Origin: Bacteroidales bacterium
Lineage (GTDB): Bacteria > Bacteroidota > Bacteroidia > Bacteroidales > UBA7960
DNA length: 43,724 bases
Assembly: GCA_046484145.1 (NCBI GenBank)
Contig: JAWOBS010000285.1
Location: 1-43,724, forward strand
Direction of reading: 5' to 3'
This document shows, piece by piece, positions 8,013-40,987 of the stretch. The translations under genes and the position numbers were made by a program. Under the pieces are notes generated by a model. That model had not been told where the DNA came from. It ran no database searches and saw nothing but the letters and a program-made list of their open reading frames with translations. Position 1 is the first letter of the stretch; the number at the start of each line of letters is the position of its first letter.

Positions 8013-8076
8013 CACTAAATTATTTGGTTTTGGAAAGCGCATATGGCCGGTTTAGTCTTGCATTTTATTAAAAAAA

Positions 8077-11526: not shown

Positions 11527-11534
11527 TAATTTTG
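11527..11534 (+). promoter_or_regulatory. candidate -7 box for ffh
   Basis: TAATTTTG matches TAnnTTTG, 20 nt upstream of the ATG at 11554. No Shine-Dalgarno sequence is present, as is usual in Bacteroidota. Confidence 0.4.
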
Positions 11535-11553
11535 CAAAAAAATTTATAAAGCT

Positions 11554-12891: not shown

Positions 12892-12922
12892 TAAGATTGT
12901 ATAATTTTTTAATGAAAGTCCG

Positions 12923-13804: not shown

Positions 13805-13806
13805 TT

Positions 13807-14463
13807 TTGACTCAATACCGACTTTCTAACCTAAGCACAGCACAAAAGGAAAATCTCGATAGAGGGAGGCTCCTTCCTGTTATGGAAGAGTTTTATTCCA
13901 TACAGGGAGAAGGCTATAACACAGGCAAGCCCGCTTACTTTCTGCGTATAGGAGGATGTGATATTGGTTGTAGATGGTGTGATGTTAAAGAGTCCTGGAA
14001 TGCTAGCATACACCCTTTAATTAAAACCGAAGAGATAATAAAGAGGGCGTTGGATTATCCTGCTAAAGCTATTGTTATTACAGGTGGAGAGCCTCTGCTT
14101 TACAACCTCGATCTTTTGTGTGATGGACTGAAAAAAGGAGGTGCTAAAATATTTATTGAAACTTCCGGTGCTTATCCCTTGTCCGGCCGATTTGATTGGA
14201 TTTGTATTTCTCCAAAACCAAATATGCCGCCTACCAAAGATATGTTATTAATGGCTGACGAACTAAAGGTTGTGATTCAGGATAAATCGGATTTTGCCTG
14301 GGCTGAAAAGAATGCAAAACTAGTGAAAGAAAAATGTGTGTTGTTTCTTCAAGCGGAGTGGAGTAAATACAAAACCATAATGCCTGAAATTATTGATTAT
14401 GTTAAAAATAATCCCAATTGGTGCACTTCTCTGCAATCTCATAAATTCATGAATATACCTTAA
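13807..14463 (+). CDS. queE: 7-carboxy-7-deazaguanine synthase (radical SAM)
   Basis: 218 aa. EEFYSIQGEGYNTGKPAYFLRIGGCDIGCRWCD carries the CxxxCxxC cluster motif in the QueE N-terminal context. TTG start as in the ORF track; the exact start is uncertain. Confidence 0.85.
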   Translation: MTQYRLSNLSTAQKENLDRGRLLPVMEEFYSIQGEGYNTGKPAYFLRIGGCDIGCRWCDVKESWNASIHPLIKTEEIIKRALDYPAKAIVITGGEPLLYNLDLLCDGLKKGGAKIFIETSGAYPLSGRFDWICISPKPNMPPTKDMLLMADELKVVIQDKSDFAWAEKNAKLVKEKCVLFLQAEWSKYKTIMPEIIDYVKNNPNWCTSLQSHKFMNIP

Positions 14464-14604
14464 TTATAAGAAATCATTTTTATAATAATTTCTTCTGTGC
14501 TCTTTAAAATATGTATTTTTTGTTGTATATTTATTGCTCAGAAAGCTGTTTTTAAATTGTTTAAGCAGGCTTGTTTATATAATAACTTTTCTAAACTATC
14601 AACT

Positions 14605-17133: not shown

Positions 17134-17191
17134 TATTGTAATTTATATTGATGTTTCCCGTTATAGAATAAGATTAAACTTTAGTTAATAT

Positions 17192-18706
17192 ATGAGATTT
17201 TCATTTAGTGTATATTCACGCAAACAGCGATGGAAGTACTTCTTGTTGGGTTTTGCTGCTGTTATTATAATTGCTTCTTTGTGGTACACAAATATTATTG
17301 TAACTAAGATAGCCAGGGAAGAGAGGAAAAAGGTGGCTTTGTGGGCAGATGCAGTCCAAAAACGCGCCAGCCTGGTTAAATATACCGAAGAGTTTTTTAA
17401 TGAAATTAAAGAAGAAGAGAAAAACAGAGTGCAGATATGGGCTGCAGCTTACAGGAAAATATTTGAAGCCGAACTTGATGAGGATATTACTTTTTATTCA
17501 GAAATAGTACTGGGAAATACAACGATACCGGTTGTATTAGTTGATGAAAACAATAATGTAATAACCAGTATGAATCTGGATAAAAAATATAGTGATTACA
17601 AAAAGTTTGAAGGTGAACTTAAAAGTTTATTTTCTGATTATAACCCAATCCCATTTACTGTAGATAATAAGACTGAATATATTTATTACCAGGATTCAAG
17701 ATTGTTTACAGAATTAAGAGCTGTGCTGGATGACTTAATTGAATCTTTTATTTCAGAAGTAGTTATTAATTCTGCAAATGTGCCCGTTATAATTACTGAT
17801 AGTGCACAAACAAAGATAATTGCGCATGGAAATATTGACGATGTTTATTTTTTTGATACTCCTAATACAAAAAAAGTCATCGAAAAAATGTCAGGTAAAA
17901 ATCCTGCAATTTTAATCGATATACCGGGCCATGGAAACTGTTATGTTTTTTATACAAATTCATTTTTACTAACACAATTAAGATATTATCCTCCGGCGCA
18001 GTTACTGGTTATAGCGATATTCCTGGTAATAGCTTACCTGTTATTCAGTACAGCCAGAAATGCAGAGCAGAACCAGGTATGGGTCGGGATGTCTAAAGAA
18101 ACTGCACATCAGCTTGGAACACCACTGTCGTCACTTATTGCCTGGATAGAAATTCTCAAAATGAAAAATGTTGATGAGAAAACGATTAAGGAAATTACTA
18201 AAGATGTTAAAAGGCTGGAAAACATCACAGAGAGATTTTCAAAAATAGGTTCTCCTCCCAAATTAGTCTTTGTTAATGTGGTAGAACTTATTTATGAAGT
18301 CGTTGATTATATGAAGACTCGCACTTCCAAAAAAATCAACTTCAAAATATATCCGTCAAGACAAACAGAAATAATGGCTCATTTAAATAATAATCTTTTT
18401 GAATGGGTAGTGGAGAATATTATAAAAAATGCTGTTGATGCCATGGAAGGTGCCGGAACTATTACTATTTCCGTTGGCCAGGATGATAAACATGCTAAAA
18501 TTGACATAAGCGATACCGGTAAAGGCATGTTAAAATCAAACTTTAAATTAGTTTTTAATCCCGGTTATACCAGCAAAAAGAGGGGATGGGGCTTAGGCTT
18601 GTCTTTGAGCAAGAGGATAATAGAAAATTATCATAAAGGGAAGTTGTTTGTAAAAGATTCATCTATAAATAAAGGCACGACTTTTCGTATAATACTTAAA
18701 AAGTAG
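17192..18706 (+). CDS. sensor histidine kinase (no response regulator in the window)
   Basis: 504 aa. Two TM segments bracket a roughly 230-aa extracytoplasmic region. H-box ETAHQLGTPLSSL, N-box ENIIKNAVDA, G-boxes DTGKGM and GWGLGLS. Confidence 0.85.
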   Translation: MRFSFSVYSRKQRWKYFLLGFAAVIIIASLWYTNIIVTKIAREERKKVALWADAVQKRASLVKYTEEFFNEIKEEEKNRVQIWAAAYRKIFEAELDEDITFYSEIVLGNTTIPVVLVDENNNVITSMNLDKKYSDYKKFEGELKSLFSDYNPIPFTVDNKTEYIYYQDSRLFTELRAVLDDLIESFISEVVINSANVPVIITDSAQTKIIAHGNIDDVYFFDTPNTKKVIEKMSGKNPAILIDIPGHGNCYVFYTNSFLLTQLRYYPPAQLLVIAIFLVIAYLLFSTARNAEQNQVWVGMSKETAHQLGTPLSSLIAWIEILKMKNVDEKTIKEITKDVKRLENITERFSKIGSPPKLVFVNVVELIYEVVDYMKTRTSKKINFKIYPSRQTEIMAHLNNNLFEWVVENIIKNAVDAMEGAGTITISVGQDDKHAKIDISDTGKGMLKSNFKLVFNPGYTSKKRGWGLGLSLSKRIIENYHKGKLFVKDSSINKGTTFRIILKK

Positions 18707-18790: not shown

Positions 18791-20092
18791 TTATTTATTT
18801 CTTTTGTCAATAAAAGTAATCGGTTTTCTGCTTGATTCAGGGAATTGCAGTTTTTGAATCTCTTTTGGAGTTGAGAAATGAATTTCCGGTGCAACTCTTA
18901 ACTTTGCCCTGAAATGGTCTTTTATAGTTTTTTTAAACAAGTCACCAGACACATTGCTTCCAATTTTGACAATTATATCATCATTTTCAACATTATTTGT
19001 AGAAACTTCTACGATATAATTTTTCACATCAGGTATCTCATTAAGAATTTCAAACAGAGCTGATGGAAATAGCGTAGTTCCTTTATACTTTATCATTTGA
19101 TTTTTTCTGCCAACAACGGGCCCTATTCGTAATGAATTTCTGCCGCATTTGCAGGGCTCTGTGTAATAAGTGCAAATATCACCTGTTCTAAAACGGATAA
19201 GAGGCATGCCTTCAACTCCAAGATTTGTAATTGTAACTTCACCAAGCTCTCCTTCTTTGACGTGATTGTTGTCCTCGTCTAAAAATTCGGCAATAAGCAT
19301 TTCCGGGTGATGGTGACCCCCGACGCCATGCTTGCATTCTGTAAAGGCAGCACCCATTTCTGTTGATGCATAAGTTGAATACAGCTGAATATCCCATTTT
19401 GACTTTATGTTTTGCCCCAGCTTATTCAGCTTGAAGTTATTGTCGCGCAATGGCTCTCCTATACATACTGCAGCCTTTACAGATGTGTTTTTAAAATCGA
19501 TATTATTCTCTTCAGCATATTCTATTAAAGTTAGAATGAAAGAGGGTATGGTAATAATGTATGTAGGTGAAATTCTTTTTATTGTGTCGAATTGCAGTTC
19601 AGGATTTCCGGGGCCTACTCTAACAATTCCGGCACCAAGCCTTCTGAGTCCGAGGAAATATGCTAAGCCGGCCATAAACCGCCGGTCTATCGTAATCATT
19701 AAGTGGTAAATGTCTGCAGGTGTACCATTAGCACAAACAAATGACAAATATTCATTAAAAGCCAGACGCTGAAGGTCTTTCTCTGTGGCAGCAAATGTCA
19801 CAGGATTTCCCAGTGTGCCGGAAGTTGTTATATAATCTACAACTTCATCTTTTGACACACATAAAAAATCCATATTCCTTGTCTGTAAATCTTCCTTTGT
19901 AGTGCAAGGAATATTCTTGAGATCTTCAATGGTTTTTATTTTAGAAATATTTATTTTATGTTTTTGGAATAAGTCTTTATAATATAGTGAGTTTATGGAG
20001 GTATATTTTAAGACTTTTGCAAGCTCTTTTTCCTGGTATTCTTTTATTTCTTTAGCAGGAAGTTTGCCAACTTCAAAATCAGGTACAAACAT
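18791..20092 (-). CDS. PaaK-like (phenylacetate-CoA ligase / F390 synthetase family) adenylate-forming aryl-acid ligase
   Basis: 433 aa. TSGTLGNP (variant of the TSGTTG.P AMP-binding motif), YASTE, and GDICTY...CGR, typical of the short PaaK clade. Last gene of the minus-strand operon. Confidence 0.82.
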   Translation of the reverse strand: MFVPDFEVGKLPAKEIKEYQEKELAKVLKYTSINSLYYKDLFQKHKINISKIKTIEDLKNIPCTTKEDLQTRNMDFLCVSKDEVVDYITTSGTLGNPVTFAATEKDLQRLAFNEYLSFVCANGTPADIYHLMITIDRRFMAGLAYFLGLRRLGAGIVRVGPGNPELQFDTIKRISPTYIITIPSFILTLIEYAEENNIDFKNTSVKAAVCIGEPLRDNNFKLNKLGQNIKSKWDIQLYSTYASTEMGAAFTECKHGVGGHHHPEMLIAEFLDEDNNHVKEGELGEVTITNLGVEGMPLIRFRTGDICTYYTEPCKCGRNSLRIGPVVGRKNQMIKYKGTTLFPSALFEILNEIPDVKNYIVEVSTNNVENDDIIVKIGSNVSGDLFKKTIKDHFRAKLRVAPEIHFSTPKEIQKLQFPESSRKPITFIDKRNK

Positions 20093-20151: not shown

Positions 20152-21846
20152 TTACTTTTTGATTTTTTTTAAAATTTTAGCAATTTTTTCTTTTTCTGAT
20201 TGCCATGGAATTTCTTTTGACAGGGCGGTTTCGTAATGCTCAATTGCTTTGTCTTTTTGTCCCGTGCTTTTATAATAATTGCCGGAAACCACCCATGTAT
20301 TATAAAACTCAGGATTTAGTTTTAAGTAATCTATAATTTCTTCTTCCTTTATTTCTTTATGCTTTTTGGCTTTTAGCAGATCTTCAAATCTTTTTGTCTC
20401 TTCCTTATATTTTAAAAAGTTTTGATATTCTTCTGTGTGGATAAATTCATCCTCAGGAATATTGAGGTCTTCATTATATAATTCAGTAATAAGGTCTGTT
20501 TTAATGTCAAATGTATCTGCAAAAACTTTATTCAAATCATAGGCTACATAGCTTCCAAGTTGAAATGGATTGCTTGAAATCCAGAATTTTAATTCCTGGG
20601 GTTTAAAAATAATTGAATGATGTGCAATAAGCTGGTTAAGTGCTTTCTCATTTCCCATGCCGATATCTTCATCATTTTTTCCTTTTCTGTCTCTGAGTAT
20701 TTCCGCGAAAGTTCTTATATCATGTTTCTCTTGCCTGTCAAGTAATTCCTTTGTTCTTTCCCATCTGTATAAAGATGAACTTTCTTCAATATTTTGAATA
20801 TTCAGGTCCCTGTCTTTTAGTTTTTCTCCCTGGTAATGGTTTGTGAGAATGATCTCATCAGTACCTGTTTCAAACATATCTATTTCTCTCTTGGTTTTTT
20901 CAATTACTACCATTCTGTTTTCTGAAGCTGAACCAATAAGAAAAGAACCCGACACAAAAGTTTTATGGCTGCGGGCAATTTCGTAGGCTTCATCTATAGT
21001 GGATGCATACTGAAGAATTTTCCTTGCAAGTATAGATACAGGGATCTTTGCTGACTTTGGTATATCAGACTTTGCTGAGTTGTAACATATTGTTAAGCCT
21101 TTTTCGTTCATGCCGGATATGGCGCCTATCATTCCTGCCCAGCTTATTGTGCTGAGTTTATATCCATTTTCAGGATTAATAAATGTTACAATTTTATTAT
21201 CTGCAAATTTATCTCCAATATATAAATCAAAATTCCTACCTATTACCATTGTTTCATCAGCAGATCTTTCATTTTTAACTCCAAAGGCAGTACAGTAAAC
21301 CATATTCATATTTTGAAGAGCGTGGCCAATGTCATGTGCAGCATGATAATTTAAAAATCTGTGATAAGGCTTTGAAACAAAGTTGAATTCCGGAGAAGCA
21401 CTCTGTGATACACCATAAATTTCTTTTTGATATTCCAGGGGTACGTGCAGTGCCATATCCCTGTTGAACCAACCAATAAAATATTTTAGAAACTTCAAAT
21501 ATGATTCAGAAGGTACCATGACGCGTATTTGCTCCATAAAAGCCTTTTCCTGGTATTCGGATAATTCTTTTGTTAAAATTCCGTTTTTTGCCCCCATATC
21601 AAAAGGGCTGCCTTCCAGGTACATTTCCCAAAGGTCATATTTGTTTTGTTTCAACCAACTGTCTTTACATACAAATATGCTATCAGTTATTTTTTCCCTT
21701 TCCAACAACAGTGCAGATTTGTCTTCAACCTTGGGAGGGTAAAATCTTTTTAGTATGCTAAAGTATGCCATGGGTGTTAAAATGATTAAAATTAAAAGTA
21801 TTGCTGCAATTTTAAAATAAGTTTTTTTATACAAGGGTTTATTCAT
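20152..21846 (-). CDS. C45-family Ntn hydrolase/acyltransferase (acyl-CoA:6-aminopenicillanic acid acyltransferase-like) with N-terminal anchor and C-terminal TPR
   Basis: 564 aa. TM anchor at aa 11-30. Putative nucleophile Cys185 in MVYCTAFG (nt 21292-21294), followed by VIGRNFD and GMNEKGL, as in C45/IAT-like proteins. C-terminal TPR-like YNTWVVSGNYYKSTGQKDKAIEHYETAL. Overlaps the upstream gene by 8 nt. Confidence 0.78.
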   Translation of the reverse strand: MNKPLYKKTYFKIAAILLILIILTPMAYFSILKRFYPPKVEDKSALLLEREKITDSIFVCKDSWLKQNKYDLWEMYLEGSPFDMGAKNGILTKELSEYQEKAFMEQIRVMVPSESYLKFLKYFIGWFNRDMALHVPLEYQKEIYGVSQSASPEFNFVSKPYHRFLNYHAAHDIGHALQNMNMVYCTAFGVKNERSADETMVIGRNFDLYIGDKFADNKIVTFINPENGYKLSTISWAGMIGAISGMNEKGLTICYNSAKSDIPKSAKIPVSILARKILQYASTIDEAYEIARSHKTFVSGSFLIGSASENRMVVIEKTKREIDMFETGTDEIILTNHYQGEKLKDRDLNIQNIEESSSLYRWERTKELLDRQEKHDIRTFAEILRDRKGKNDEDIGMGNEKALNQLIAHHSIIFKPQELKFWISSNPFQLGSYVAYDLNKVFADTFDIKTDLITELYNEDLNIPEDEFIHTEEYQNFLKYKEETKRFEDLLKAKKHKEIKEEEIIDYLKLNPEFYNTWVVSGNYYKSTGQKDKAIEHYETALSKEIPWQSEKEKIAKILKKIKK

Positions 21847-23341
21847 CTTTTATTTCGTTTATAAGTTTGTTAATATCAACAAAGCCGGAACAAGTTATTA
21901 ATGAGCTAATTGACACACCAAGCATGCCATGTAAGTTTACATTTTGTCCGGTTAAAAATAAATTTGGCACGCGTGTGTTATGAGATACAAAAGTACTTAA
22001 TGGGTCTTTATAATCTTTTATTAAGCCATACATAGAGCCACCGGGCGAGCCTGTGTAATCTTTGAAAGTCAAAGGCGTTGATGTATAAAAGCTGTCAATG
22101 CTTTGCTTTATGCCGGGTATTTTTTCATTTAAAATATGTAATAATTTTTCTGCTTTTTTTGCTTTAAAATCCAGGTAATCATCACCTCTTTTGCCTATCC
22201 TTGTATTATCCCATTTTTTCACTTCTTCAAACTTCATAAAAGTAATAATAGTTGCGCTCTCGGCATAACCCGGATGTTGCTTGCATGGTGTTGTGTAAAA
22301 AATAAAGCCCTGGGGCCATCTGTCAGTATTATAATTATCAATTCCCCAAACGTCATCATAGGTTTTTGAATAGTAAACGTTGGAGTTAATATGTTTAAAA
22401 GATTTCTTTTTCAGTACAATATATATACTAAAAGGAGATATTGAGTTTTCTATTGCGTTAATTCTGTTTATATATGCTTTTCTTAGTATTCCGGGTTCAA
22501 TAAGGCTGTTTGTAAGTGTTGGATGTATGTTAGAAATAAATGATTTTGCTGTAATTTTATTTCCTTGTGATGTAAGTGCTGCAACAGCTTGCTTATCGCG
22601 ACAGATAATTTTTTCTACTTTAGTACCAGTAAGAATTTCTCCTCCCAGGCTTTCGAAAATATTTTGCAATGCTGAAGCGAAGTTTATATTTCTTTCATCA
22701 AGCTTCCACGCACTATTAATGAAAAATTTGTTAATAATAGCATGAGTGTACAATGGTGTTTTGTCTTTTACTCCGGCATAAAGCCCATTGGTTGCAGCAA
22801 GTAATCCTTTAAGTTTATAGTTATCAGTAAGCGAATCAATAAAAGAATATGCCCCGATTTGTTCAAAACCGCCCTTGAAAACTTCAGTATCTGAAACTTC
22901 TCTAAGGTTAATTATTTTAACCTTGTTCCAAATGCTGTCAATTTCGTTCACGTATTTTTCAATGGCAGTTTTTTCATTTGGAAAATAAGATATAAGACGG
23001 TTCTTAAAGTTTTCATTGCCCATCTCATAACAGTATTCATCATCTTCAATTAGTATTTTTTCAAAACAATTATCAAGTTTTTTAACGATGATTTTATCTA
23101 ATATTCCAAGGTATTTGAAAAGCTTGTATAATATCTGACCCTTATCAAGTGAGCCTATATAATGCATTCCTGTAGTAAAAGTGCAGCCTTTCCTGGTAAA
23201 AGTTTGTATGTTTCCACCAATTTGAGAATGTTGTTCAAGAATGCAAACGGAGTAACCATGTTTGGCCAGAATAATTCCGCAGAGCAATCCACCCAGCCCG
23301 GCACCAATTATTACAATGTCATATTTATACATGTCTTTCAT
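21839..23341 (-). CDS. NAD(P)/FAD-dependent oxidoreductase, phytoene desaturase (CrtI)-like, paralogue 2
   Basis: 500 aa. Dinucleotide fold YDIVIIGAGLGGLLCGIILAKHGYSVCILE. Length and C-terminal LFLTGQNVNLHGMLGVSIS resemble CrtI/amine-oxidase-like enzymes. Clear paralogue of the upstream gene. Confidence 0.85.
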   Translation of the reverse strand: MKDMYKYDIVIIGAGLGGLLCGIILAKHGYSVCILEQHSQIGGNIQTFTRKGCTFTTGMHYIGSLDKGQILYKLFKYLGILDKIIVKKLDNCFEKILIEDDEYCYEMGNENFKNRLISYFPNEKTAIEKYVNEIDSIWNKVKIINLREVSDTEVFKGGFEQIGAYSFIDSLTDNYKLKGLLAATNGLYAGVKDKTPLYTHAIINKFFINSAWKLDERNINFASALQNIFESLGGEILTGTKVEKIICRDKQAVAALTSQGNKITAKSFISNIHPTLTNSLIEPGILRKAYINRINAIENSISPFSIYIVLKKKSFKHINSNVYYSKTYDDVWGIDNYNTDRWPQGFIFYTTPCKQHPGYAESATIITFMKFEEVKKWDNTRIGKRGDDYLDFKAKKAEKLLHILNEKIPGIKQSIDSFYTSTPLTFKDYTGSPGGSMYGLIKDYKDPLSTFVSHNTRVPNLFLTGQNVNLHGMLGVSISSLITCSGFVDINKLINEIKDE

Positions 23342-24828
23342 GCTTTTCTGATTTTATTGTACAAATAATCAAATCCGATTAATTCAGAGCATGTCAATGC
23401 TGCACTTATTGAGACACCTAATATTCCATGCATATTTAAATTTTGCCCTGTGAAATATAAATTATTAATTCTCGATTTGGGTGTTATTATGCCTGTTAAT
23501 GTGTTGTTGTAATCCTTTAATATACCATATGATGATCCTTCCGGTGTTGCTGTGTATTCCTTATATGTGAGAGGTGTTGAGGTATAATAATGTTTTACGT
23601 TTTTTCTTATTCCGGGGAATTTCTTTTCTATAGCTTCAAAAAGCTTCTGTGCTTTTTTCTCTTTAAACTCAAGATATTCATCGCCCCTGTTTTCAATTCT
23701 GGTATTTTCCCATTTTTTCACTTCATCATATTTCATATATGTTAAAGCGATAATTCCGTCTGTCCATTTTTCCGACCTGGATGTAGCCGGTGTGTAAAGC
23801 ATGTAATGCTCCGGCCATAATTTCTCATCATAATCTGTTGTCCATGTGTTTACTTTCGCAAAATGATGATGGTTGTAATTCAGGTATGGAAAGCTTTCCT
23901 TTTTCATAACCATGTAAAGGCTAAACATTCCAATTGTATTTTCTAAAGATTTGATACGCTTGAAAAATGCTTTTTTTATCAAGGCAGGATGTACTAGTTT
24001 AAGTGTATTTGCAGGATGGATGTTTGATATGAATTTCTTTGCAAATATTTTTTCGCCATTGTCTAAAACAACATAGTCAACACTGTTGTTCTCGCCGCAA
24101 ATGCCTGTTACTGTGGTTGATCTGAATATTTTGCCGCCGTTTTCTTTAATGACATCTGCTATTCTTGCTGCGAGTTGCGAGCTGCCATCAATGAACCTCC
24201 ACGAACTTCTGATGAATGAATAGTTTATCAGTGCATGTATATATAGTGGCGTTTTATCTCTGACACCTGCATACAATGAATTCATGCCGCTTAGCACCTC
24301 CCTGAGTTTATTGTCATCAGTGATAGACTTTAAAAAGTTATATGCACCAATATTTAAATGCTTATTGTCTTTGGCTGAAAGATCTCCATCGAGTGTATAT
24401 AAAGGAAATTGATTGCAAACTGCTTCCATTTCACTGATGTATCTTTTTAAATTTTGTTTTTCCTTTGGGAAATAATCAGCCAGTGAATTTACAAAATTGT
24501 CATAACCCTGGGCAAAAGGATATTCTGTACTATCTCCATTAAAACTTATCTTGTCAAAATGATTAATGTCAAGCCTTTTTATTTTTATCCTGTCAATAAT
24601 ATCAAAAAATTTAAAGTATTGATTCAGAACTTCTCCTTCACCTAAGCTTTCAGTATAGTTTAATCCTGTGTTAAATATTGTTTTATTTTTAGAGAATGAT
24701 TGAATGCAGCCGCCTATCTTTTTGTTTTTTTCTATCACACATACTTTAAAACCCTCTTTGCTAAGAATATTACCGCAAAGTAGCCCTCCTAATCCACCGC
24801 CTATAATTACAACATCGTAATTGTTCAT
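23338..24828 (-). CDS. NAD(P)/FAD-dependent oxidoreductase, phytoene desaturase (CrtI)-like, paralogue 1
   Basis: 496 aa. YDVVIIGGGLGGLLCGNILSKEGFKVCVIE and LYFTGQNLNMHGILGVSIS. The stop overlaps the next start by 4 nt (ATGA). Confidence 0.85.
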   Translation of the reverse strand: MNNYDVVIIGGGLGGLLCGNILSKEGFKVCVIEKNKKIGGCIQSFSKNKTIFNTGLNYTESLGEGEVLNQYFKFFDIIDRIKIKRLDINHFDKISFNGDSTEYPFAQGYDNFVNSLADYFPKEKQNLKRYISEMEAVCNQFPLYTLDGDLSAKDNKHLNIGAYNFLKSITDDNKLREVLSGMNSLYAGVRDKTPLYIHALINYSFIRSSWRFIDGSSQLAARIADVIKENGGKIFRSTTVTGICGENNSVDYVVLDNGEKIFAKKFISNIHPANTLKLVHPALIKKAFFKRIKSLENTIGMFSLYMVMKKESFPYLNYNHHHFAKVNTWTTDYDEKLWPEHYMLYTPATSRSEKWTDGIIALTYMKYDEVKKWENTRIENRGDEYLEFKEKKAQKLFEAIEKKFPGIRKNVKHYYTSTPLTYKEYTATPEGSSYGILKDYNNTLTGIITPKSRINNLYFTGQNLNMHGILGVSISAALTCSELIGFDYLYNKIRKA

Positions 24829-24830: not shown

Positions 24831-27800
24831 TTATTCCTTTCTTAATATATATGTGATGTTTGATGTGAGTTTTGAATTGTCAAATCTCTCAAACGTAAAT
24901 CCATTATTAAGTGCAAAATTTTCAATCTCTTTACTTGGGAAAAATGAGAGTTTATACTTCTTTTTATTGAACCTTACTATTTGTGTGCTTTGAACTTCAG
25001 TAAATTTAGTAAAGAATGTCCTGTTTTTTATATCCGTATCAGCATCCCTGATAATAATCATGCCTTTATTGTTAATCATTTTACTGCATTCCAACAATAG
25101 CTTTAATCTCAGCTCATGAGGGAGATAATGCAATACATCGTTTAAGATGTAAACGTCGGAAGGTGGAATACCTCCTTCTGTAATGTCTTTTAGTTGAAAT
25201 TTTAAGTTATTAGTTTTTGCAGAAATATTATTTGCTATAGCAATTTTTTCTTCATCATAATCAAGGCCGGTAATAATTCTGTCATCGGATGTGCAATGCA
25301 ACATATAAGCTAAATAGCCATATCCGCATCCAATATCTGTTATTGTTGCTTTTTTGGGAATTATATTGTTGTAGAATGTATAATATTTCTCAGCTTTTAA
25401 TTTTGTTCTTACATACCATTCTAATATTGGACCTTTATAAATGTACTGGGCAATTAATCTTCGTGCAAAATATTTAGGTGTTTCTATTTTTTCTCTAAAA
25501 TTATCGTATTCTTTTCTATATAAACTTTTCAATTCTTTGGCTTGTTCTTTATATGTTTCTCCTTTTTCTGTACTGACGCTGCGGACTTTTATTTTGTCCA
25601 GTACTTTTATATGTACACGGCCTGCTTTTAAAAAGAATTCAATTTTTGGCATTACATGATACAAGCCATGTATCATAACCGGCTGTATATCAATATTTAA
25701 TTTGTCTGCCACATATAGCGCGCCCTGGTGGAAACGTTTTATTTCTCCGTCTTCTGTCCTTGTTCCTTCCGGAAAAATCAATACAGAGTATCCTTGCTTA
25801 ATTTTGTTTTTTAGAGCTTCAAAGTCATGGTCAAGGCCTTTAAAAGCAGGGTAGAAGTCAGCAAACCTGATAAAATAACCAAAGAAAGGGCTGTTGTAAA
25901 CCCAGGAATTTGTGAATGCGATAATCTTTGGATTAAGCCCGAGCAAAAACATTAAATCAAGAAATGACTGATGATTTGAAATAATTACTGATGGCTTTGA
26001 AAAATCAAGCTTATATTTATCTATATACTTTGTTCTTACACCATGATTAACGGATGTTATGAATTTTGAAAATCCTTTTATGATATTATGCACAATAACT
26101 TTTTTGTGCCTTTTTTTAATTGGCAACAACAATATAACAGGGAAAAACAATGCCATTAATAATACCCCAAGTAAATAAACTATCAGTGCATTAAGTGAAA
26201 CTGTCAGGTTATATAATGTAACTGGCTCAATCCTGGGTTGCTTTTTGTTGTTTACTATGTATGAGAAAAATAGTGGCAACAAAGTGTATGTAATTATTAC
26301 AACAGACGTAATGCCCAGTATTGAAACAAATGCTATTGATTTTAAAACAGGGTGCTGGGCAAATATCAGCACTCCAAAACTTGTTATTGTAGTTATGGCT
26401 GATAATAAGACAGATAGCTTAAATGGAGCTAGTGGAACATTACCATATTTGTGGTTGTTTATTAGCCCGCTCATTATAAAAATACTGTAATCAATTCCAA
26501 GTCCAAATACAAAAGTTGTAATGATAATATTAAAAATATTGAATTCAAGGCCAAGCAAGCCCATTAACCCGATTGTCCATATCCAGCTTATAAGAATAGG
26601 AAGAAAAGCTATTATTGCAATTTCTATTCTTCCGTATGCTAAAAGTAAGATACTGAATATCAATATCATCGATAGAGTAACAAGCCATCGGAAGTCTTCT
26701 TTAAGAACCTCAAGAAATTGATTAATAAAATACTGGTTGTCAAATACTATTGTTTCCTCATCATGCTTAAAGTTGTCAAATAGTTGTTCTTTGTTGTCCC
26801 GGCTAACCTTTACAATTGTTATTACAGAGTTTATATCTTCATTTTCACTAATGTAATTTTCAAGAAAATTCTTTTTTAGAACCCGGAAGCTGTCAGTTGG
26901 CAAGGCCTCAAATTCTTTATCAAGCAAATTAAAGAATGAGGAAAATGCATTAATGTTAAATCGATATTCTTTTCCTGATTGAAGTAAATTTTCCTGTAAT
27001 TCTTTCTTGGTTTCTTTATCCCAGAATGAATTCCATTTTTTAATTTTTTGCTTTTGGGCTTCTTTTGAAAAAATCAGGTCTGCTGCAGTGCTTATATCTG
27101 ATATAACTTCTTCTTTTTTCAGTTCATTTAATATGTTTAAATTCTTTTCGGTTTTTAGCAAAGCCTTATTTAAACTGGTATCCTGGGTGACTAAATAGAC
27201 AGCGCTAAGAGCTTCGGAACTGATGTCTTTTAGTTTCTTTTCGGCTTTTTCTAATTTGTCAGGCTGGTAGTTTAAGCTTGTGAGGTCGCTGTTAAAACTG
27301 AGCATTCCTGAGGTGTATATGAACAGGCCGGATAAAACAATTATTGCTATTATCAGGTATTTGTTTTTATTGAATTTATATTGAGATATTTTATCAAAAA
27401 ATGTGTAATTATAGTTTGTTGATTTTTTATTATTGGGAGATTTTAGGAAGAACGGAAGAACAATAAGTACTATTAATGCAGTAACAATTATAGCAATTGC
27501 GGCAAATAATCCCAGTTGGTTAAGTGCTTGTGACTTTATAATAAACAAACATAAAAACGCTAATGCTGTAGAAATACTACTAAGCATAACCGGTTTTGAT
27601 ATGTTTTTCAAAGTGTGTTTTACAGAATTGCTGCTTCTAAAGTGAGTAAATGCATGCAATGAGTAATCAAGGGAAATGCCTATTAATACTGCACCTACAC
27701 CTAATGCCATTGCCGATATTGTTCCTTCTATTATAACTAAGATAGCAACTGATATTATTGCTCCAAAGAGTATGGGCGTAAATAACAATATTATGTATCT

Positions 27801-28673
27801 TATTTTTCTAAAAATAAAGAGGAAGAAGAATGCCAGTATAATTAGTGCTATTGAAACAGTTAATATAATATCATTCTTGATTCTTGATGCATTTGCAACA
27901 GCCACAGCTGTTCCTCCGTAATATTGTACGTGAATTGCCGGGTGTTTTTTATTGAATGACTCAAGAGTTTTATCAATGAAATTAATTAAGTGCTTGTTCT
28001 CTTTTGTATTGGATGAAGGATAGGCCGGATCCAGGAATACCAGCAAATTTTTATTGTCCTTTGTGAATATACTTGAGTTATAAATATGAAAATTTTCATC
28101 CAGTTGAAAATTTTCAAGTTTTTTTAATGCTATTGGCGTTAAGTGCAGAGGGTCTTTTTTTACAAAATCTTTAGTTGCAAATCCAACCGGTGAAATCAGT
28201 GTTTTGAAATTGCTTTGCAGTGTTTTGTTAATTTCTCCTGGCTTAATCCTTTTGGATATTTCATCATAATCATCATCAGAAAGAAACAGTGGAAGATTGT
28301 TATAGATAAAATCATAAATATGAAAATAGGATTCATTTTCAATACTGGCCCTGATGGATTTTATATGTGTTGAGTCTTTTATGAGCTCATTAGATAAATA
28401 ATCTGCTGCTTTTATAAGTGTATCAGGCTCAGTCTTTTCATTATCATAAAACGAAAACATAAAGATTAGCCTGTCGGCGAATTCTGATTGTGAAATTACA
28501 TCATTTATCTTCGTTATCCTTTCATCACGGGGAATTATTGCAGATACGTCTTCTTCAAGTTCTAGTTTATAAACAAAAAATGCAGCAACCAGCAATATTG
28601 CTATAAATAATATTGATGAAAATACTTTCCATTTAGAAATAACATGATGTATATTAACAAAGATATTATTCAT
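24831..28673 (-). CDS. tri-domain fusion: MMPL/RND-type exporter + PlsC/LPLAT acyltransferase + class I SAM methyltransferase
   Basis: 1280 aa. aa 1 to about 840: two units of soluble loop plus TM bundle (GAVLIGISLDYSLH, FVFGLGIDYSIF), typical of MMPL proteins. aa about 870-1030: NHQSFLD (H901-x4-D906; nt 25956-25976) and FPEGTR (aa 967-972). aa about 1070-1280: SAM motif I ITDIGCGYGYL (aa 1111-1121; nt 25311-25343). Confidence 0.85.
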   Translation of the reverse strand: MNNIFVNIHHVISKWKVFSSILFIAILLVAAFFVYKLELEEDVSAIIPRDERITKINDVISQSEFADRLIFMFSFYDNEKTEPDTLIKAADYLSNELIKDSTHIKSIRASIENESYFHIYDFIYNNLPLFLSDDDYDEISKRIKPGEINKTLQSNFKTLISPVGFATKDFVKKDPLHLTPIALKKLENFQLDENFHIYNSSIFTKDNKNLLVFLDPAYPSSNTKENKHLINFIDKTLESFNKKHPAIHVQYYGGTAVAVANASRIKNDIILTVSIALIILAFFFLFIFRKIRYIILLFTPILFGAIISVAILVIIEGTISAMALGVGAVLIGISLDYSLHAFTHFRSSNSVKHTLKNISKPVMLSSISTALAFLCLFIIKSQALNQLGLFAAIAIIVTALIVLIVLPFFLKSPNNKKSTNYNYTFFDKISQYKFNKNKYLIIAIIVLSGLFIYTSGMLSFNSDLTSLNYQPDKLEKAEKKLKDISSEALSAVYLVTQDTSLNKALLKTEKNLNILNELKKEEVISDISTAADLIFSKEAQKQKIKKWNSFWDKETKKELQENLLQSGKEYRFNINAFSSFFNLLDKEFEALPTDSFRVLKKNFLENYISENEDINSVITIVKVSRDNKEQLFDNFKHDEETIVFDNQYFINQFLEVLKEDFRWLVTLSMILIFSILLLAYGRIEIAIIAFLPILISWIWTIGLMGLLGLEFNIFNIIITTFVFGLGIDYSIFIMSGLINNHKYGNVPLAPFKLSVLLSAITTITSFGVLIFAQHPVLKSIAFVSILGITSVVIITYTLLPLFFSYIVNNKKQPRIEPVTLYNLTVSLNALIVYLLGVLLMALFFPVILLLPIKKRHKKVIVHNIIKGFSKFITSVNHGVRTKYIDKYKLDFSKPSVIISNHQSFLDLMFLLGLNPKIIAFTNSWVYNSPFFGYFIRFADFYPAFKGLDHDFEALKNKIKQGYSVLIFPEGTRTEDGEIKRFHQGALYVADKLNIDIQPVMIHGLYHVMPKIEFFLKAGRVHIKVLDKIKVRSVSTEKGETYKEQAKELKSLYRKEYDNFREKIETPKYFARRLIAQYIYKGPILEWYVRTKLKAEKYYTFYNNIIPKKATITDIGCGYGYLAYMLHCTSDDRIITGLDYDEEKIAIANNISAKTNNLKFQLKDITEGGIPPSDVYILNDVLHYLPHELRLKLLLECSKMINNKGMIIIRDADTDIKNRTFFTKFTEVQSTQIVRFNKKKYKLSFFPSKEIENFALNNGFTFERFDNSKLTSNITYILRKE

Positions 28674-30207
28674 TTTTTTCTTTGCTTTTTAATAACGGCA
28701 ATAAAACGTATGTTAGTAAACCGGCTGCTAAGCCTGCTAAAGTTGCAAAGACCATACTTCCAACCAGATATTGCAAAAGATTTTCTTTTAATCCTGTAAG
28801 ATTCATTTCAATATCTACATTCCAGGATCCATGGCCCAGCACATAACTGCCGGTAACATAGCTTAAATATAATATAAATGGCATTAGCGGCGGAAGGCTT
28901 ATATTTGCAGCTAAGAATACTACTGCTTTCTTTAGCTTAAGAAAATGAGCCAGCAATAATCCTATGGCCAACTGATATCCCCAGATAGGCGTTATTCCCA
29001 TGAAAACGCCAAATCCAATTGAAATAGCAATTATATGATTTGGTGTTTTACTGCAAAGAATGTCTTCTTTGATTATTTGCTTTAGCTTCCTTTTTCTGAA
29101 CTTGCGGATGAGGTTTCTTGGCTTGTAGTATAAAATGGCTAAAAATGTAAAGATGAAATTAAGAATGCTTATCCTTAGGAAATCCTTAAAAGGCCTGAAG
29201 TGTGTAATCCTTTCTTCTTTTGGCGGATAATATACATCTATAGGAATTGTTTCAATTTTAATCCCCTTCCAGGAAGCCCTTACAATAACTTCAAGTTCAT
29301 ATTCATATTTGCTTGAGAAAAACCGCATTTTCTCCAAAATACGCAATGGGTAAAGCCTGTAGCCACTTTGTGTGTCTTTTAGGCTTAGTCCGGTTTGAAA
29401 TTTATACCAGAAATTAGAGAATTTGTTTGCAAAACTACTTTTTCCGGGAATGTTGGAGTCATTTAAAGTCCTGGTGCCAATGATTATTGAATCCGGATGC
29501 TCTTTTATCTTTTCAAGAAATGTGGGTATTTCTTTGGCCAGGTGCTGCCCGTCAGAATCAATTGTAATGGCATATTCATATCCGGATTTTATTGCCTCCG
29601 AAAAACCGCTTTTTAAAGCAATCCCTTTTCCCTTGTTCTTTTTATGATGTAATACTTTTAAATTATTGAATTCCGTTAAGATTTCAGTTGTGTTGTCAGT
29701 GCTGCCATCGTTGACTATTATAATATTGTCAGTGTAGTTTAATACATCATAAATTACAGCTTTTAGTTTGGCGGCATTATTATAGGTTGGGATTATTATG
29801 CAATAATTTACAGGCTGTAAATCTAAATTGTCAGTGTTTTTTTTTTTAAGATATTCACTTTTTAATTTTAGAAAGTTTGTTTCATCAGAGAAAATATGTC
29901 CCGCGACTTTCATAGTACCTTCCCCGTTACTTTCGTGTGTAATTTTTACAGTAAGATTATTGTCCTTTTTGGGATTAATGAGAGAGAGAAATTTAATTTC
30001 CCGGGCAGACAATAGCATATAGTTATTATTAGTTTCTTTTTCTAAAATTTCTTTAATGATTTGAACCTGGCAAACGCCCGGCACAACAGGTATTGATGGG
30101 AAATGGCCTTTGAAAATAGAATGTTCTTTATTGAAAGTAATCTCTGCAATTATTTCACCCTCAGCCTTGTGCGTAACAATATATGTGTAAAAATCTTTAT
30201 AAAGCAT
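28666..30207 (-). CDS. tri-domain fusion: FabZ/FabA-like hotdog dehydratase + family 2 glycosyltransferase + DUF2062-like membrane domain
   Basis: 513 aa. aa 1 to about 120: FKGHFPSIPVVPGVCQVQ (FabZ-type motif). aa about 135-350: GT2 (YCIIIPTYNNAAKL, IVNDGSTDNT, AITIDSDGQH). aa about 385-513: four hydrophobic helices (GFGVFMGITPIWGYQ...), as in DUF2062. Confidence 0.82.
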   Translation of the reverse strand: MLYKDFYTYIVTHKAEGEIIAEITFNKEHSIFKGHFPSIPVVPGVCQVQIIKEILEKETNNNYMLLSAREIKFLSLINPKKDNNLTVKITHESNGEGTMKVAGHIFSDETNFLKLKSEYLKKKNTDNLDLQPVNYCIIIPTYNNAAKLKAVIYDVLNYTDNIIIVNDGSTDNTTEILTEFNNLKVLHHKKNKGKGIALKSGFSEAIKSGYEYAITIDSDGQHLAKEIPTFLEKIKEHPDSIIIGTRTLNDSNIPGKSSFANKFSNFWYKFQTGLSLKDTQSGYRLYPLRILEKMRFFSSKYEYELEVIVRASWKGIKIETIPIDVYYPPKEERITHFRPFKDFLRISILNFIFTFLAILYYKPRNLIRKFRKRKLKQIIKEDILCSKTPNHIIAISIGFGVFMGITPIWGYQLAIGLLLAHFLKLKKAVVFLAANISLPPLMPFILYLSYVTGSYVLGHGSWNVDIEMNLTGLKENLLQYLVGSMVFATLAGLAAGLLTYVLLPLLKSKEKNE

Positions 30208-36348: not shown

Positions 36349-36735
36349 ATGAAGTACTATATTAGTAAAACAATAGCTGCAAATTTTGATCAAGCGATAT
36401 CGCTGGTTACAGAAGCATTAAAAACAGAAGGTTTTGGTATATTATCCGAAATTGATATTCAACAGAAGTTGAAAGAAAAGCTGGATGTTGATTTTAGAAA
36501 ATACAAAATTTTGGGTGCGTGCAACCCCCCAAATGCATACAAGGCACTTCAACAGGAAGATAAAATTGGCACAATGCTTCCCTGTAATGTAATAGTACAG
36601 GAAACAGGTGAAAATCAAGTGGAAGTTGCAGCCGTTGACCCGGTAATTTCAATGATGGCTGTTGATAATAAACAACTTGCAGAAATTGCCGGCGATATTA
36701 AGGCAAAACTTGAGCGGGTTATTGAATCATTATAA
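36349..36735 (+). CDS. DUF302 domain protein
   Basis: 128 aa. FGILSEIDIQQKL ... YKILGACNPPNAYKAL ... IGTMLPCNVIVQE ... VAAVDP matches the DUF302 pattern. Confidence 0.85.
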   Translation: MKYYISKTIAANFDQAISLVTEALKTEGFGILSEIDIQQKLKEKLDVDFRKYKILGACNPPNAYKALQQEDKIGTMLPCNVIVQETGENQVEVAAVDPVISMMAVDNKQLAEIAGDIKAKLERVIESL

Positions 36736-37419: not shown

Positions 37420-38313
37420 ATGGCTTCATGGAGTGGAAAAACCAAAGGAGGAACATTAGGTTATAGAATTTTTATTTTTCTATTAAAATACTTTAATATA
37501 AGAGTTGCATATTTTGTTCTTTTTTTTGTTGCTTCATGGTTTTATCTGTTCATTAAGAAAGAAGGTATTTATTTTTATTTCAGGAAAATTCTTAACTATT
37601 CTGCCGCCAAAACTCAATTGAGTATTTGGCGTAATTTTTATATATTCGGGCAAGTACTTCTCGTTAGAATTGCTATTGCAGCAGGTTTTTCAAAAAAATT
37701 TACATTTAATTTTGAAGGTGAACATTATCTTCATGAAATAGCTGATAAAAAAACCGGCGGTGTTCTTATTGGCGCCCATATTGGAAATTGGGAAATAGCA
37801 GGCAAGCTGCTGGAAAGAATTGATGCAAATATAAATATCCTGATGTATGATGGTGAACAAGAGTATATTAAGGAATTATTATCGTCAGTTATGCAGGAGT
37901 ACAGAATTAAAATAATCTACATAAAAGAGAATGATAATTCCTACCTTTTTGAAATAGCTGAAGCCTTAAAAAGAAAAGATATTATTGCAATGCACGGTGA
38001 CAGGTTTTTGCCGGGTACAAATAATATTGAAAAAACATTTATGGGCCATAAAGCGAAATTTCCAACAGGCCCGTTTTATCTTGCCAGTAAATATAATGTC
38101 CCTGTTATATATGTTTCGGCAATGAAAGAAAAACCTACTCATTATCATTTCTATGCTACCGAACCAAAATATTACAAATACCCTGCAAATCTTAAAACTA
38201 GAAGGAATGAAATAAGTGTCATGATGGACGATTATATTGAAGTCATGGAAAGCATGATCAAAAAGTATCCACTTCAGTGGTTTAATTATTATCAATTCTG
38301 GAAAAAAAATTAA
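37420..38313 (+). CDS. LpxL/HtrB-like lysophospholipid (lipid A-type) acyltransferase
   Basis: 297 aa. N-terminal TM helices, GAHIGNWE (H-x4-E acyltransferase motif of the LpxL family), and HGDRF. Starts 5 nt after ACP-1. Confidence 0.78.
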   Translation: MASWSGKTKGGTLGYRIFIFLLKYFNIRVAYFVLFFVASWFYLFIKKEGIYFYFRKILNYSAAKTQLSIWRNFYIFGQVLLVRIAIAAGFSKKFTFNFEGEHYLHEIADKKTGGVLIGAHIGNWEIAGKLLERIDANINILMYDGEQEYIKELLSSVMQEYRIKIIYIKENDNSYLFEIAEALKRKDIIAMHGDRFLPGTNNIEKTFMGHKAKFPTGPFYLASKYNVPVIYVSAMKEKPTHYHFYATEPKYYKYPANLKTRRNEISVMMDDYIEVMESMIKKYPLQWFNYYQFWKKN

Positions 38314-38326: not shown

Positions 38327-39394
38327 ATGAAAAATTACGGATCAGATGAAAAATCAGCAGTGCAGGCTAAATTTGATGCTCAAAAAATTGCCTTTGCACC
38401 AATAATGTTTCAGGCTGCAAAGTCTCTTAGAAATTTAGGCATTTTAGAAACACTTGAAAAAAACAGGAAACAAGGATTAACAATTGAAGATGTTGCAAAA
38501 AATTGCAGTGTACCGGTATATGGAGTTAAAGTTTTGCTGGAAGCTGCTATTAGCCTCGAAATGGTTTTTGTTAAAGACGATAAGTTCTTTTTGTCTAAAA
38601 CCGGTTGGTTTATTCTTAATGATGACCTGACTAAGGTAAATATGGACTTTACCAATGATGTTAATTACCTTGGTTTTCATGAGCTTGAAGAATCTATTAT
38701 AAACGAAAAGCCGGAAGGTCTTAAAGTTTTTGGAGAATGGGATACTGTTTATGAAGCTCTTTCAAAATTGCCTGAAAAGGTCAGAAAAAGCTGGTTTGCT
38801 TTTGACCATTATTATTCTGATATAGCTTTCCCTGAAGTTTTACCTCTTGTTTTCGGAAATAAACCTTCCAAAGTTCTTGATGTTGGAGGAAATACCGGGA
38901 AGTTTTCAATTAAGTGCTGTGAATATGATCCGGATGTTAAAGTTACTATTCTTGATTTGCCCGGACAATTAAATGATGCATATAAGAATATTGAAAAGAA
39001 AGGATTTTCAGATAGAATCGACGGACATGGAATGAATCTTCTTGACCCATCTAAACCATTCCCTAAAGGATATGATGCAGTTTGGATGAGCCAGTTTTTA
39101 GATTGTTTTTCTCAGGAGGATATTTTGCATCTAATCTCAAGGGCAAAAGATGCTCTTAATGAAAATGGCGCATTGTATATCCTGGAAACATTCTGGGATA
39201 AACAAAAATATGATGCTGCAATGTATAGCTTACATGCAACATCTCTTTATTTTACTTGTATAGCTAACGGATGTAGCCAGATGTATCATTCAGATGATAT
39301 GTATAAATTGGTTGATAAAGCCGGTATGTTTGTTGAAAAAACTATCGATAATATTGGAGTTAGCCATACTTTATTTATTTGTAAACCAAAATAA
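38327..39394 (+). CDS. SAM-dependent O-methyltransferase (winged-helix dimerisation domain + class I MTase)
   Basis: 355 aa. N-terminal HTH-like dimerisation region, then SAM motif I VLDVGGNTGKFS and the acidic loop ILDLP, as in small-molecule OMTs. Confidence 0.82.
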   Translation: MKNYGSDEKSAVQAKFDAQKIAFAPIMFQAAKSLRNLGILETLEKNRKQGLTIEDVAKNCSVPVYGVKVLLEAAISLEMVFVKDDKFFLSKTGWFILNDDLTKVNMDFTNDVNYLGFHELEESIINEKPEGLKVFGEWDTVYEALSKLPEKVRKSWFAFDHYYSDIAFPEVLPLVFGNKPSKVLDVGGNTGKFSIKCCEYDPDVKVTILDLPGQLNDAYKNIEKKGFSDRIDGHGMNLLDPSKPFPKGYDAVWMSQFLDCFSQEDILHLISRAKDALNENGALYILETFWDKQKYDAAMYSLHATSLYFTCIANGCSQMYHSDDMYKLVDKAGMFVEKTIDNIGVSHTLFICKPK

Positions 39395-40905: not shown

Positions 40906-40947
40906 GGTTGAGGTTAAGGTTAAGGTTAAGGTTAAGGTTAAGGTTAA
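40893..40947. repeat. hexanucleotide microsatellite (GGTTRA)n
   Basis: GGTTAA a GGTTGA GGTTGA GGTTAA x6. Eight contiguous perfect-phase units span 40900-40947, with one extra unit at 40893-40898. Read directly from the sequence. Confidence 0.97.
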
Positions 40948-40987
40948 TTGTTAATAATCAATTATATTTTTCTTAATATATTTTACA

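Follow-up and report, generated by a model that had tools for sequence, protein, structure and literature searches.

A three-module protein encoded by one reading frame

Contig JAWOBS010000285.1 of a Bacteroidales bacterium (assembly GCA_046484145.1), whose 43,724 nucleotides we call the window, carries on its minus strand a gene for a 1280-aa polypeptide in which an exporter, an acyltransferase and a methyltransferase are joined. Judging by its gene order, which is that of Table S4 in PMC3992019, by homology and by product name, this open reading frame (ORF) is the FlxU ortholog of a flexirubin-type aryl-polyene cluster in a low-GC Bacteroidota genome. In the ORF list the frame (24831..28673, minus strand) is single and unbroken from its ATG start to the stop codon at 24831-24833, as an initial annotation made from the letters alone had described it. 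The gene overlaps its upstream neighbor by 8 nt, and the next gene follows after 2 nt. Homologs align from residue 1 of the protein, which supports the ATG start. The gene and its parts, with the evidence for each in brackets (RND, resistance-nodulation-division; SAM, S-adenosylmethionine; AF2, AlphaFold2), are as follows.

24831..28673, minus strand: flxU ortholog, RND exporter plus PlsC-type acyltransferase plus class I SAM methyltransferase (ORF, Pfam, NCBIfam, full-length homologs, PMC3992019 Table S4, RefSeq/UniRef name)
26256..28673, minus strand: RND/MMPL transporter module, aa 1-806 (Pfam, NCBIfam, hydropathy, AF2, Foldseek, ApeM colinearity)
26049..26216, minus strand: predicted PlsC-type two-helix membrane anchor, aa 820-875 (hydropathy, flanking residues, AF2, 5KYM alignment)
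25554..26048, minus strand: acyltransferase catalytic core, aa 876-1040, the ApeD equivalent (PF01553, ApeD blastp, 5KYM, conservation)
25440..25553, minus strand: helical linker between acyltransferase and methyltransferase, aa 1041-1078 (alignment, AF2 helices)
24834..25439, minus strand: FlxU-specific class I SAM methyltransferase, aa 1079-1280 (Pfam, AF2, Foldseek, conservation)

Three Pfam domains, namely MMPL, acyltransferase (PF01553) and class I methyltransferase, score over their gathering cut-offs, and the RND part spans aa 1-806. The three-domain anatomy given in the initial annotation was thus recovered, and the motifs that it had placed by eye were found at HQSFLD 901-906, FPEGTR 967-972 and DIGCGYG 1113-1119. 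The domain junctions lie near nt 26150 and 25500, the sites at which, by its own account, stops or frameshifts would refute the fusion.

Residue conservation was assessed over 81 species. Invariant in all of them are H901, P968, E969 and R972 of the acyltransferase, D728 of the exporter, and D1113, G1115, G1117, G1119, D1138, H1182 and Y1183 of the methyltransferase. By module, invariant positions make up 12.9% of the methyltransferase (26/202), 5.0% of the acyltransferase and 3.3% of the RND part. The linker between the RND module and the acyltransferase has 13 residues and a fixed length. Both linkers are essentially free of indels in an alignment of 37 sequences at 42-72% identity, and the one at aa 1041-1078 shows 0 inserted residues and 0 gaps. 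These comparisons show, at the level of sequence, that the three modules keep their catalytic signatures in a fixed order and with fixed spacing. A large AF2 model covering aa 81-1280 reached a pLDDT of 85.4 and a pTM of 0.75, and the methyltransferase was also modeled on its own.

The architecture is widespread in Bacteroidota and already on record

A scan of one genome per GTDB species gave at least 355 species-representative loci with a FlxU relative, all of them in Bacteroidota, and the best 80 were used for context. In these best 80 of at least 355 loci, the match is colinear over residues 1-1279. They comprise isolates (among them Chitinophaga, Mucilaginibacter, Carboxylicivirga, Labilibaculum and Terrimonas) as well as metagenome-assembled genomes (MAGs) of Bacteroidales, Marinilabiliaceae, Cytophagales and Saprospiraceae. 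The homology search gave at least 120 proteins of 1260-1304 aa at 42-72% identity, the nearest database protein being 72% identical, and all of them have the same three Pfam domains. The combination of MMPL, PF01553 and methyltransferase, for which the initial annotation had proposed a domain-architecture search, is thus shared by at least 120 proteins. Residues 1-1279 were likewise matched in Chitinophaga loci (L023, L025, L029, L034, L041, L055 and L065) at 36-39% identity; the comparison is with these loci, of which L055 is a C. pinensis MAG, and not with Cpin_1873 itself.

Table S4 of Schöner et al. 2014 (PMC3992019) places flxU (Cpin_1873 of Chitinophaga pinensis) between flxT and flxV; the FlxU of Flavobacterium johnsoniae is Fjoh_1078. 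The window protein shares with FlxU its three colinear domains, its length of about 1280 aa and its position between FlxT (GT2/DUF2062) and FlxV (FAD oxidoreductase). From the Chitinophaga FlxU it differs by sequence divergence only (about 37-40% identity to Chitinophaga), but the upstream FlxS and FlxT are fused in the window, which is rare. For FlxU, the 2014 table names an exporter and an acyltransferase domain and no others. The RefSeq/UniRef product name of the family is 'trifunctional' (MMPL/LPLAT/methyltransferase), and a 2026 taxonomy paper applies the full 'trifunctional' name to slot U/78 in the flexirubin cluster. This name at the U/78 slot, together with a BLAST coverage of 91%, suggests that Fjoh_1078 carries the methyltransferase too. 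According to a study cited in PMC3992019, Fjoh_1078-1089 restored pigment in a pigment-negative F. johnsoniae mutant, which is indirect evidence that FlxU may be needed to make or localize flexirubin.

The novelty that the initial annotation implied was therefore not upheld: the architecture is common in Bacteroidota, was recorded in 2014 as FlxU and is named in RefSeq, an annotation that is domain-level and not experimental. What is added here to the known fusion architecture is the mapping to ApeM and ApeD, the extra FlxU-specific methyltransferase and the absence of unfused forms.

The fusion is not an assembly artifact

A sequencing or assembly frameshift could in principle have fused three separate genes, and the initial annotation had named this check itself. 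The colinear homologs in at least 120 proteins and 80 genomes, together with the indel-free linkers, exclude such a join: the identical architecture recurs in genomes that were assembled independently, isolates included, and the junctions carry no indels. We regard an artifact as practically refuted. The opposite holds, in that the apparent 'split' database entries are the artifacts. Searches with the acyltransferase alone and with the methyltransferase alone found no natural unfused form among hundreds of genomes. They did return many matches of 200-430 aa, and we considered whether natural split forms exist; each of those examined proved to be either cut off at a contig edge or the product of a gene that is frameshifted or degraded. 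One short form (L082) is a contig-edge fragment, with its frame open from nt 1 and encoding transmembrane helices (TM) 11-12, while three others (L086, L087 and L088) are frameshifted or degraded genes.

Some of these loci are damaged beyond FlxU. On long-read MAG contigs (L008, L038 and L087) nearly all cluster genes are in pieces, which looks like indel errors. In the isolate Niabella ginsengisoli (L086) both FlxU and the FAD oxidoreductase gene are fragmented, which may reflect decay of the cluster. Fragmented FlxU genes also give rise to spurious 'methyltransferase domain-containing protein' records.

The RND/MMPL module

Pfam MMPL (PF03176) matches the N-terminal part in two stretches (60.6 bits against a cut-off of 20.5). 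Hydropathy gives the canonical 1+5 / 1+5 layout of TM1, periplasmic domain 1, TM2-6, TM7, periplasmic domain 2 and TM8-12. The 'DYS' proton-relay motifs lie in TM4 (D336-Y337, nt 27660-27668) and in TM10 (D728-Y729, nt 26484-26492), and D728 of TM10 is the invariant one. Position 336 is Asp in Bacteroidales/Marinilabiliales, including the window, and Asn in Chitinophagales, Sphingobacteriales and Cytophagales. If the relay requires both Asp residues, as it does in MmpL3, one would not expect the TM4 Asp to be replaced.

In Foldseek, the nearest solved fold is HpnN, followed by MmpL3/4/5, NPC1, Patched and Dispatched. The nearest NCBIfam models are HpnN (TIGR03480; 114 bits against 752) and HAE3 (TIGR00921; 121 against 352). 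By these scores, the module is of the MMPL/RND family, related to the HpnN and HAE3 equivalogs but a member of neither. It would be placed with the ApeM-type exporters ('APPE' RND family, 10.1101/2020.12.19.423268), given that it is colinear with ApeM and lies in a cluster with adjacent LolA-like and LolB2 genes. With HpnN (5KHN, 6WU0) and MmpL3/4/5 it shares 12 TM, two periplasmic domains and Asp-Tyr motifs in TM4 and TM10 (Foldseek E 1e-16 to 1e-10). Identity to these proteins is about 15%, however, and none of them has a fused acyltransferase or methyltransferase.

The acyltransferase module

PF01553 matches aa 892-1001 (61.6 bits against a cut-off of 23). The HX4D motif is HQSFLD at aa 901-906 (H901...D906, nt 25956-25973), and FPEGTR stands at aa 967-972 (nt 25758-25775). 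In NCBIfam this part is nearest to AGPAT-type acyltransferases, but its score against the AGPAT model TIGR00530 is 60.2 bits, short of the cut-off of 102.95, so lysophosphatidic acid cannot be assumed as the acceptor. The E. coli model PRK15018 (housekeeping PlsC) gives only 15.6 bits, and the FlxU acyltransferase is closer to ApeD.

Residues 40-213 of Thermotoga maritima PlsC (5KYM) align with aa 855-1026 (E 3e-15), and the two enzymes have HX4D and FPEGTR in common. Just before and at the start of the aligned region, AF2 predicts a hydrophobic helix of 30 residues at aa 820-849 and an amphipathic one at aa 854-875. The first sits where the unaligned N-terminal residues of 5KYM (about 1-39) would lie, and basic clusters (NNKKQPR ... 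KKRHKK) flank its region. From this alignment we infer that aa 820-849 is the counterpart of the membrane-embedded first helix of PlsC, a monotopic anchor in the cytoplasmic leaflet. The basic flanks, and the need of the downstream methyltransferase for SAM, favor such an anchor and a cytoplasmic enzyme. Unlike PlsC, the FlxU acyltransferase is embedded between two other domains.

The fused methyltransferase is distinct from ApeB/FlxJ

Pfam Methyltransf_31 matches aa 1107-1218 (41.1 bits against a cut-off of 27), and Methyltransf_25/12/11 match as well. The domain has motif I (DIGCGYG, aa 1113-1119, nt 25317-25337), D1138 and the sequence NDVLHY (nt 25125-25142), with D1179, H1182 and Y1183 also conserved. 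An N-terminal lid, KGPxLEWYxRxK, occupies aa 1080-1091; conserved here are P1082, E1085, Y1087, K1091 and Y1098. Modeled alone, the domain gave an alternating beta/alpha structure with a pLDDT of 89.5. Foldseek returned probability 1.0 to many class I methyltransferases, generic small-molecule enzymes in which O-, N- and C-methylases are mixed, at TM scores of 0.5-0.7.

Among 1.84 billion representative proteins searched, 228 clusters (at 50% identity) matched the methyltransferase with E <= 1e-30, and in every hit listed the domain forms the very C-terminal end of a protein of FlxU length or of a fragment. By sequence clustering and conservation, the fused methyltransferase is a FlxU-specific clade and the most conserved module of the protein.

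The initial annotation had taken this domain to be additional to the stand-alone methyltransferase at 38327-39394, and that proved right. The stand-alone enzyme is the ApeB/FlxJ ortholog, with 48% identity to ApeB over 352 aa (E 6e-124) and 527 bits against the NCBIfam model FlxJ_fam_MTase (cut-off 560). Between the fused domain and ApeB there is no BLAST match at E 1e-2, and its NCBIfam matches contain no FlxJ model (NF053543). ApeB thus corresponds to the stand-alone enzyme, and the E. coli cluster contains no counterpart of the fused methyltransferase.

Attempts at a more specific function were dropped. The best match to a PDB sequence (E 2e-7) is to an uncharacterised methyltransferase and was too weak. 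Resemblances to NodS and to phosphoethanolamine N-methyltransferases were not specific enough and were left unused. A lipid methylation-reduction of the BfaA/BfaB type, together with the adjacent FAD oxidoreductases, was rejected as the methyltransferase has no match to the CMAS family.

The surrounding gene cluster

The features around flxU that bear on its function are listed here (GT2, glycosyltransferase family 2; Ntn, N-terminal nucleophile).

28666..30207, minus strand: FlxS plus FlxT equivalent (FabA/ApeI-like dehydratase, GT2 and DUF2062), upstream and translationally overlapping (Pfam; blastp to ApeI and to the N-terminal half of ApeJ)
21839..24828, minus strand: two tandem CrtD/CrtI-like FAD oxidoreductases, carotenoid-isomerase-like, FlxV equivalents, directly downstream of FlxU (Pfam, NCBIfam)
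20152-21846, minus strand: FlxW, C45 Ntn acyltransferase/hydrolase (NCBIfam C45_proenzyme, 212 bits)
18791-20092, minus strand: FlxY acyl-CoA ligase, closing the operon (NCBIfam FlxY_rubin equivalog, 684 bits against a cut-off of 520)
37420-38313, plus strand: LpxL-type acyltransferase, matching the C-terminal half of ApeJ
38327..39394, plus strand: stand-alone FlxJ/ApeB-type methyltransferase (ApeB blastp; NCBIfam FlxJ_fam_MTase)

On the minus strand, the whole cluster of the window consists of tyrosine ammonia-lyase (TAL), ketoreductase (KR), ketosynthase (KS), polysaccharide deacetylase, LolA-like protein, LolB2, the fused dehydratase (DH), GT2 and DUF2062 protein, FlxU, the two FAD oxidoreductases, the C45 Ntn acyltransferase and the FlxY ligase. 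Divergent from it on the plus strand are acyl carrier protein (ACP), the LpxL-type acyltransferase, the FlxJ-type methyltransferase, a FabZ-like protein, a DarG-like protein and a BtrH_N protein. Two curated NCBIfam models, FlxY_rubin and LolB2_flexi, score above their cut-offs in the window.

Neighborhoods were counted in the 10-kb flanks of FlxU at the 80 loci. Nearly all of them show the order [DH]-[GT2-DUF2062]-FlxU-FAD oxidoreductase(s)-Ntn-ligase, and the conserved gene order FlxT-FlxU-FlxV-FlxW-FlxY lies beside polyketide synthase (PKS), LolA and deacetylase genes. Genes for GT2, deacetylase and LpxL-type acyltransferase are co-conserved with FlxU. Most loci with full flanks have either KS, ACP and thioesterase genes or TAL-KR-KS genes. 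A homolog of the upstream gene occurs at 71/80 loci and stands directly upstream of FlxU in the gene orders, and an FAD oxidoreductase homolog occurs at 75/80 loci, in most gene orders straight after FlxU. The nearest NCBIfam models of the gene at 28666..30207 are the polyprenyl-phosphate sugar synthases PpgS/AglJ. Its fusion of dehydratase, GT2 and DUF2062 is the rarer one, found at 1/80 loci (L003), while a separate GT2 gene is present at 71 and a separate dehydratase ORF at 43.

The window has two tandem FAD oxidoreductases where the C. pinensis table has one FlxV. At its right side, 40432-41992 (plus strand) holds DarG-like (below the NCBIfam cut-off) and BtrH_N/DUF4872 (DarH-like) genes. 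Neither darA nor darB is visible within the window, and the gene content suggests that the dialkylresorcinol genes continue past its right end. Inside or beside the cluster lie a sulfotransferase (42310-43389, plus strand), a flavodoxin-like protein (39871-40341, plus strand) and a DUF302 protein (36349-36735, plus strand). None of the three has a homolog near FlxU in any of the 80 loci, and they may represent lineage-specific tailoring, for example toward a sulfated product. One Bacteroidales MAG locus (L083, 10001-18858; likewise L084 and L085) is a compact module whose 10-kb surroundings lack polyketide and TAL genes. It consists of a stand-alone LPLAT (253 aa), a C45 Ntn protein, a GT2 (275 aa, with no DUF2062 match recorded), FlxU and an FAD oxidoreductase.

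Positions 1-18706 of the window are unrelated to the cluster. They encode DnaK, a TonB-dependent receptor, an MscS-like channel, shikimate dehydrogenase and a VCA0040-like protein (PF04018), as well as TPR proteins, Ffh/SRP54, a TPR-SpoIIE phosphatase and a histidine kinase.

Correspondence with the Ape pathway and with MmpL systems

Every protein of the E. coli CFT073 ape locus was compared by blastp with every ORF of the window, and the following correspondences concern the fusion and its neighbors.

ApeM residues 19-765: fusion aa 23-800, colinear (E 5e-18, 19% identity)
ApeD: fusion aa 834-1010 (E 3e-17)
ApeI and the N-terminal half of ApeJ: the upstream DH plus GT2 gene, 28666-30207, minus strand
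C-terminal half of ApeJ: the separate LpxL-type acyltransferase gene, 37420-38313, plus strand

The CFT073 locus bears out the earlier statement that exporter and acyltransferase are separate in E. coli: ApeM and ApeD are encoded by genes that are not even adjacent, whereas in FlxU they form one polypeptide. The converse applies to ApeJ. In E. coli (L001, 41212-42888) a GT2 and an LpxL-type acyltransferase are fused, and the window has them as two genes on opposite strands. In the two lineages, different neighbors within one pathway have thus become fused. The accessory set of LolA-like carrier, GT2, LpxL-type acyltransferase, ACPs, KS and KR is common to both. The starter unit is supplied through TAL and FlxY in the window but through the ApeH ligase in E. 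coli.

In the model proposed for Xenorhabdus doucetiae and E. coli, ApeD would acylate the sn-2 position of a lysophospholipid, ApeM would be the RND exporter, ApeB would methylate the ring and ApeJ would add N-acetylgalactosamine (GalNAc) and the aryl polyene (10.1101/2020.12.19.423268; PMC8253772). A precedent for enzymes held at an exporter comes from Mycobacterium tuberculosis, where late acyl-transfer and polyketide steps are physically tied to MmpL proteins at the cytoplasmic face (MmpL7-PpsE and MmpL8-Chp1-Sap; PMC1238737; PMC3318749). That coupling is non-covalent and involves unrelated enzymes, whereas FlxU, known from sequence, is a gene fusion with a PlsC-type acyltransferase and a methyltransferase.

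A model for lipid finishing at the exporter

We consider it reasonably probable that FlxU finishes a lipid intermediate by acylation and methylation at the entrance of the exporter and then exports it. In such a scheme, the acyltransferase and methyltransferase would face the cytoplasm, where acyl-ACP or acyl-CoA and SAM are available. The acyltransferase would put an ACP-bound acyl or polyene chain on a lysophospholipid-type acceptor, as proposed for ApeD, and the methyltransferase would modify that same lipid intermediate and not the aryl ring, which is the job of FlxJ/ApeB. The RND module, powered by the putative proton relay at Asp728 of TM10, would then extract the finished lipid from the inner membrane and hand it to the LolA-like and LolB2-like carriers of the cluster for the outer membrane. 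The covalent fusion would set a 1:1:1 stoichiometry and keep the last tailoring steps at the exporter entrance. Acylation and methylation may plausibly be coupled physically to export, in view of the fixed linker lengths, the catalytic residues invariant in 81 species, the lack of split forms and the MmpL precedent (PMC1238737, PMC3318749).

A lesser but real possibility is that the fusion serves co-expression only. It would ensure equal amounts and membrane localization, while the enzymes act on bulk lipid of the inner leaflet that diffuses laterally to the RND module, with no hand-off. The same activities indeed occur as separate proteins in Proteobacteria, adjacent or not (PMC3949708), and PlsC-type enzymes use membrane-dissolved substrates anyway. 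A mere tether, however, should tolerate indels and fission, and both linkers are invariant in length at 42-72% identity, with no natural split form found among hundreds of genomes. The pTM of 0.75 for a multidomain model of 1200 residues also suggests a defined arrangement. The acyltransferase could otherwise make the flexirubin ester by transferring the aryl-polyene acyl chain to a dialkylresorcinol hydroxyl, the RND module exporting finished flexirubin. PMC3992019 assigns no enzyme to formation of this ester and merely suggests FlxW, the DarG-like and DarH-like genes imply that a dialkylresorcinol ester is probably made, and a score below the AGPAT cut-off (60 vs 103 bits) fits no housekeeping PlsC. 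We nevertheless think this unlikely: the best specific relative is ApeD, for which acylation of a lysophospholipid was proposed in a system without dialkylresorcinol (10.1101/2020.12.19.423268), and a glycolipid anchor is suggested by the co-conserved genes for GT2, deacetylase and an acyltransferase of LpxL type.

It is quite improbable, in our estimate, that the fused methyltransferase is the methylase of the aryl ring (or phenol) of the pigment, redundant with FlxJ/ApeB or replacing it. Flexirubin of the Chitinophaga/Flexibacter type does carry a methionine-derived ring methyl, and aromatic O- and C-methyltransferases are among the Foldseek neighbors of the domain. Yet the same cluster already has the ApeB/FlxJ ortholog (48% identity), to which the fused domain has no detectable similarity, and deletion of ApeB alone leads to desmethyl products in Xenorhabdus (10.1101/2020.12.19.423268). 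Moreover, no FlxU examined lacks the fused domain, whereas only 22/80 loci have an ApeB-like methyltransferase in the 10-kb flanks.

Several observations weigh against lipid finishing at the exporter. The known flexirubin is an aryl-polyene ester of dialkylresorcinol, which needs neither glycerolipid acylation nor a second methylation. At the canonical relay site in TM4, the species divide by clade at residue 336: 40 have Asp, 40 have Asn and one has Thr. The generic Foldseek neighbors of the methyltransferase allow no substrate to be assigned, and the prediction of aa 820-849 as one 30-residue helix would permit a 13th membrane pass. At a few loci (L002, L014, L039, L062 and, from Bacteroidales, L083) PKS genes are missing from the 10-kb surroundings; the polyketide genes may lie elsewhere in these genomes, or the module may sometimes serve another lipid than an aryl polyene. 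We found no experimental work on FlxU or Fjoh_1078 in the literature searched.

Implications for aryl-polyene export

Few bacterial biosynthetic gene clusters are as widespread as those for aryl polyenes and flexirubins, and the attachment of their products to lipid and their transport to the outer membrane are still largely a model. The present result is an annotation-level insight and not a discovery, with the architecture on record since 2014. Across one phylum, exporter, ApeD-type acyltransferase and an extra methyltransferase form one polypeptide of fixed geometry.

On sequence evidence, FlxU also points to a methylation step without counterpart in the characterized E. coli/Xenorhabdus pathway. 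More speculatively, FlxU might be a self-contained 'acylate, methylate, export' machine that methylates the lipid anchor or head group rather than the aryl ring. If so, one candidate methyl target would be a phospho-sugar or an amine exposed by the co-conserved deacetylase, and the flexirubin-type clusters of Bacteroidota would make an undescribed methylated aryl-polyene (glyco)lipid, besides or instead of the dialkylresorcinol ester. By Rosetta-stone logic, the fusion would also predict a complex of ApeM and ApeD in Proteobacteria. FlxU offers a one-gene genetic handle on whether late tailoring is coupled to RND export.

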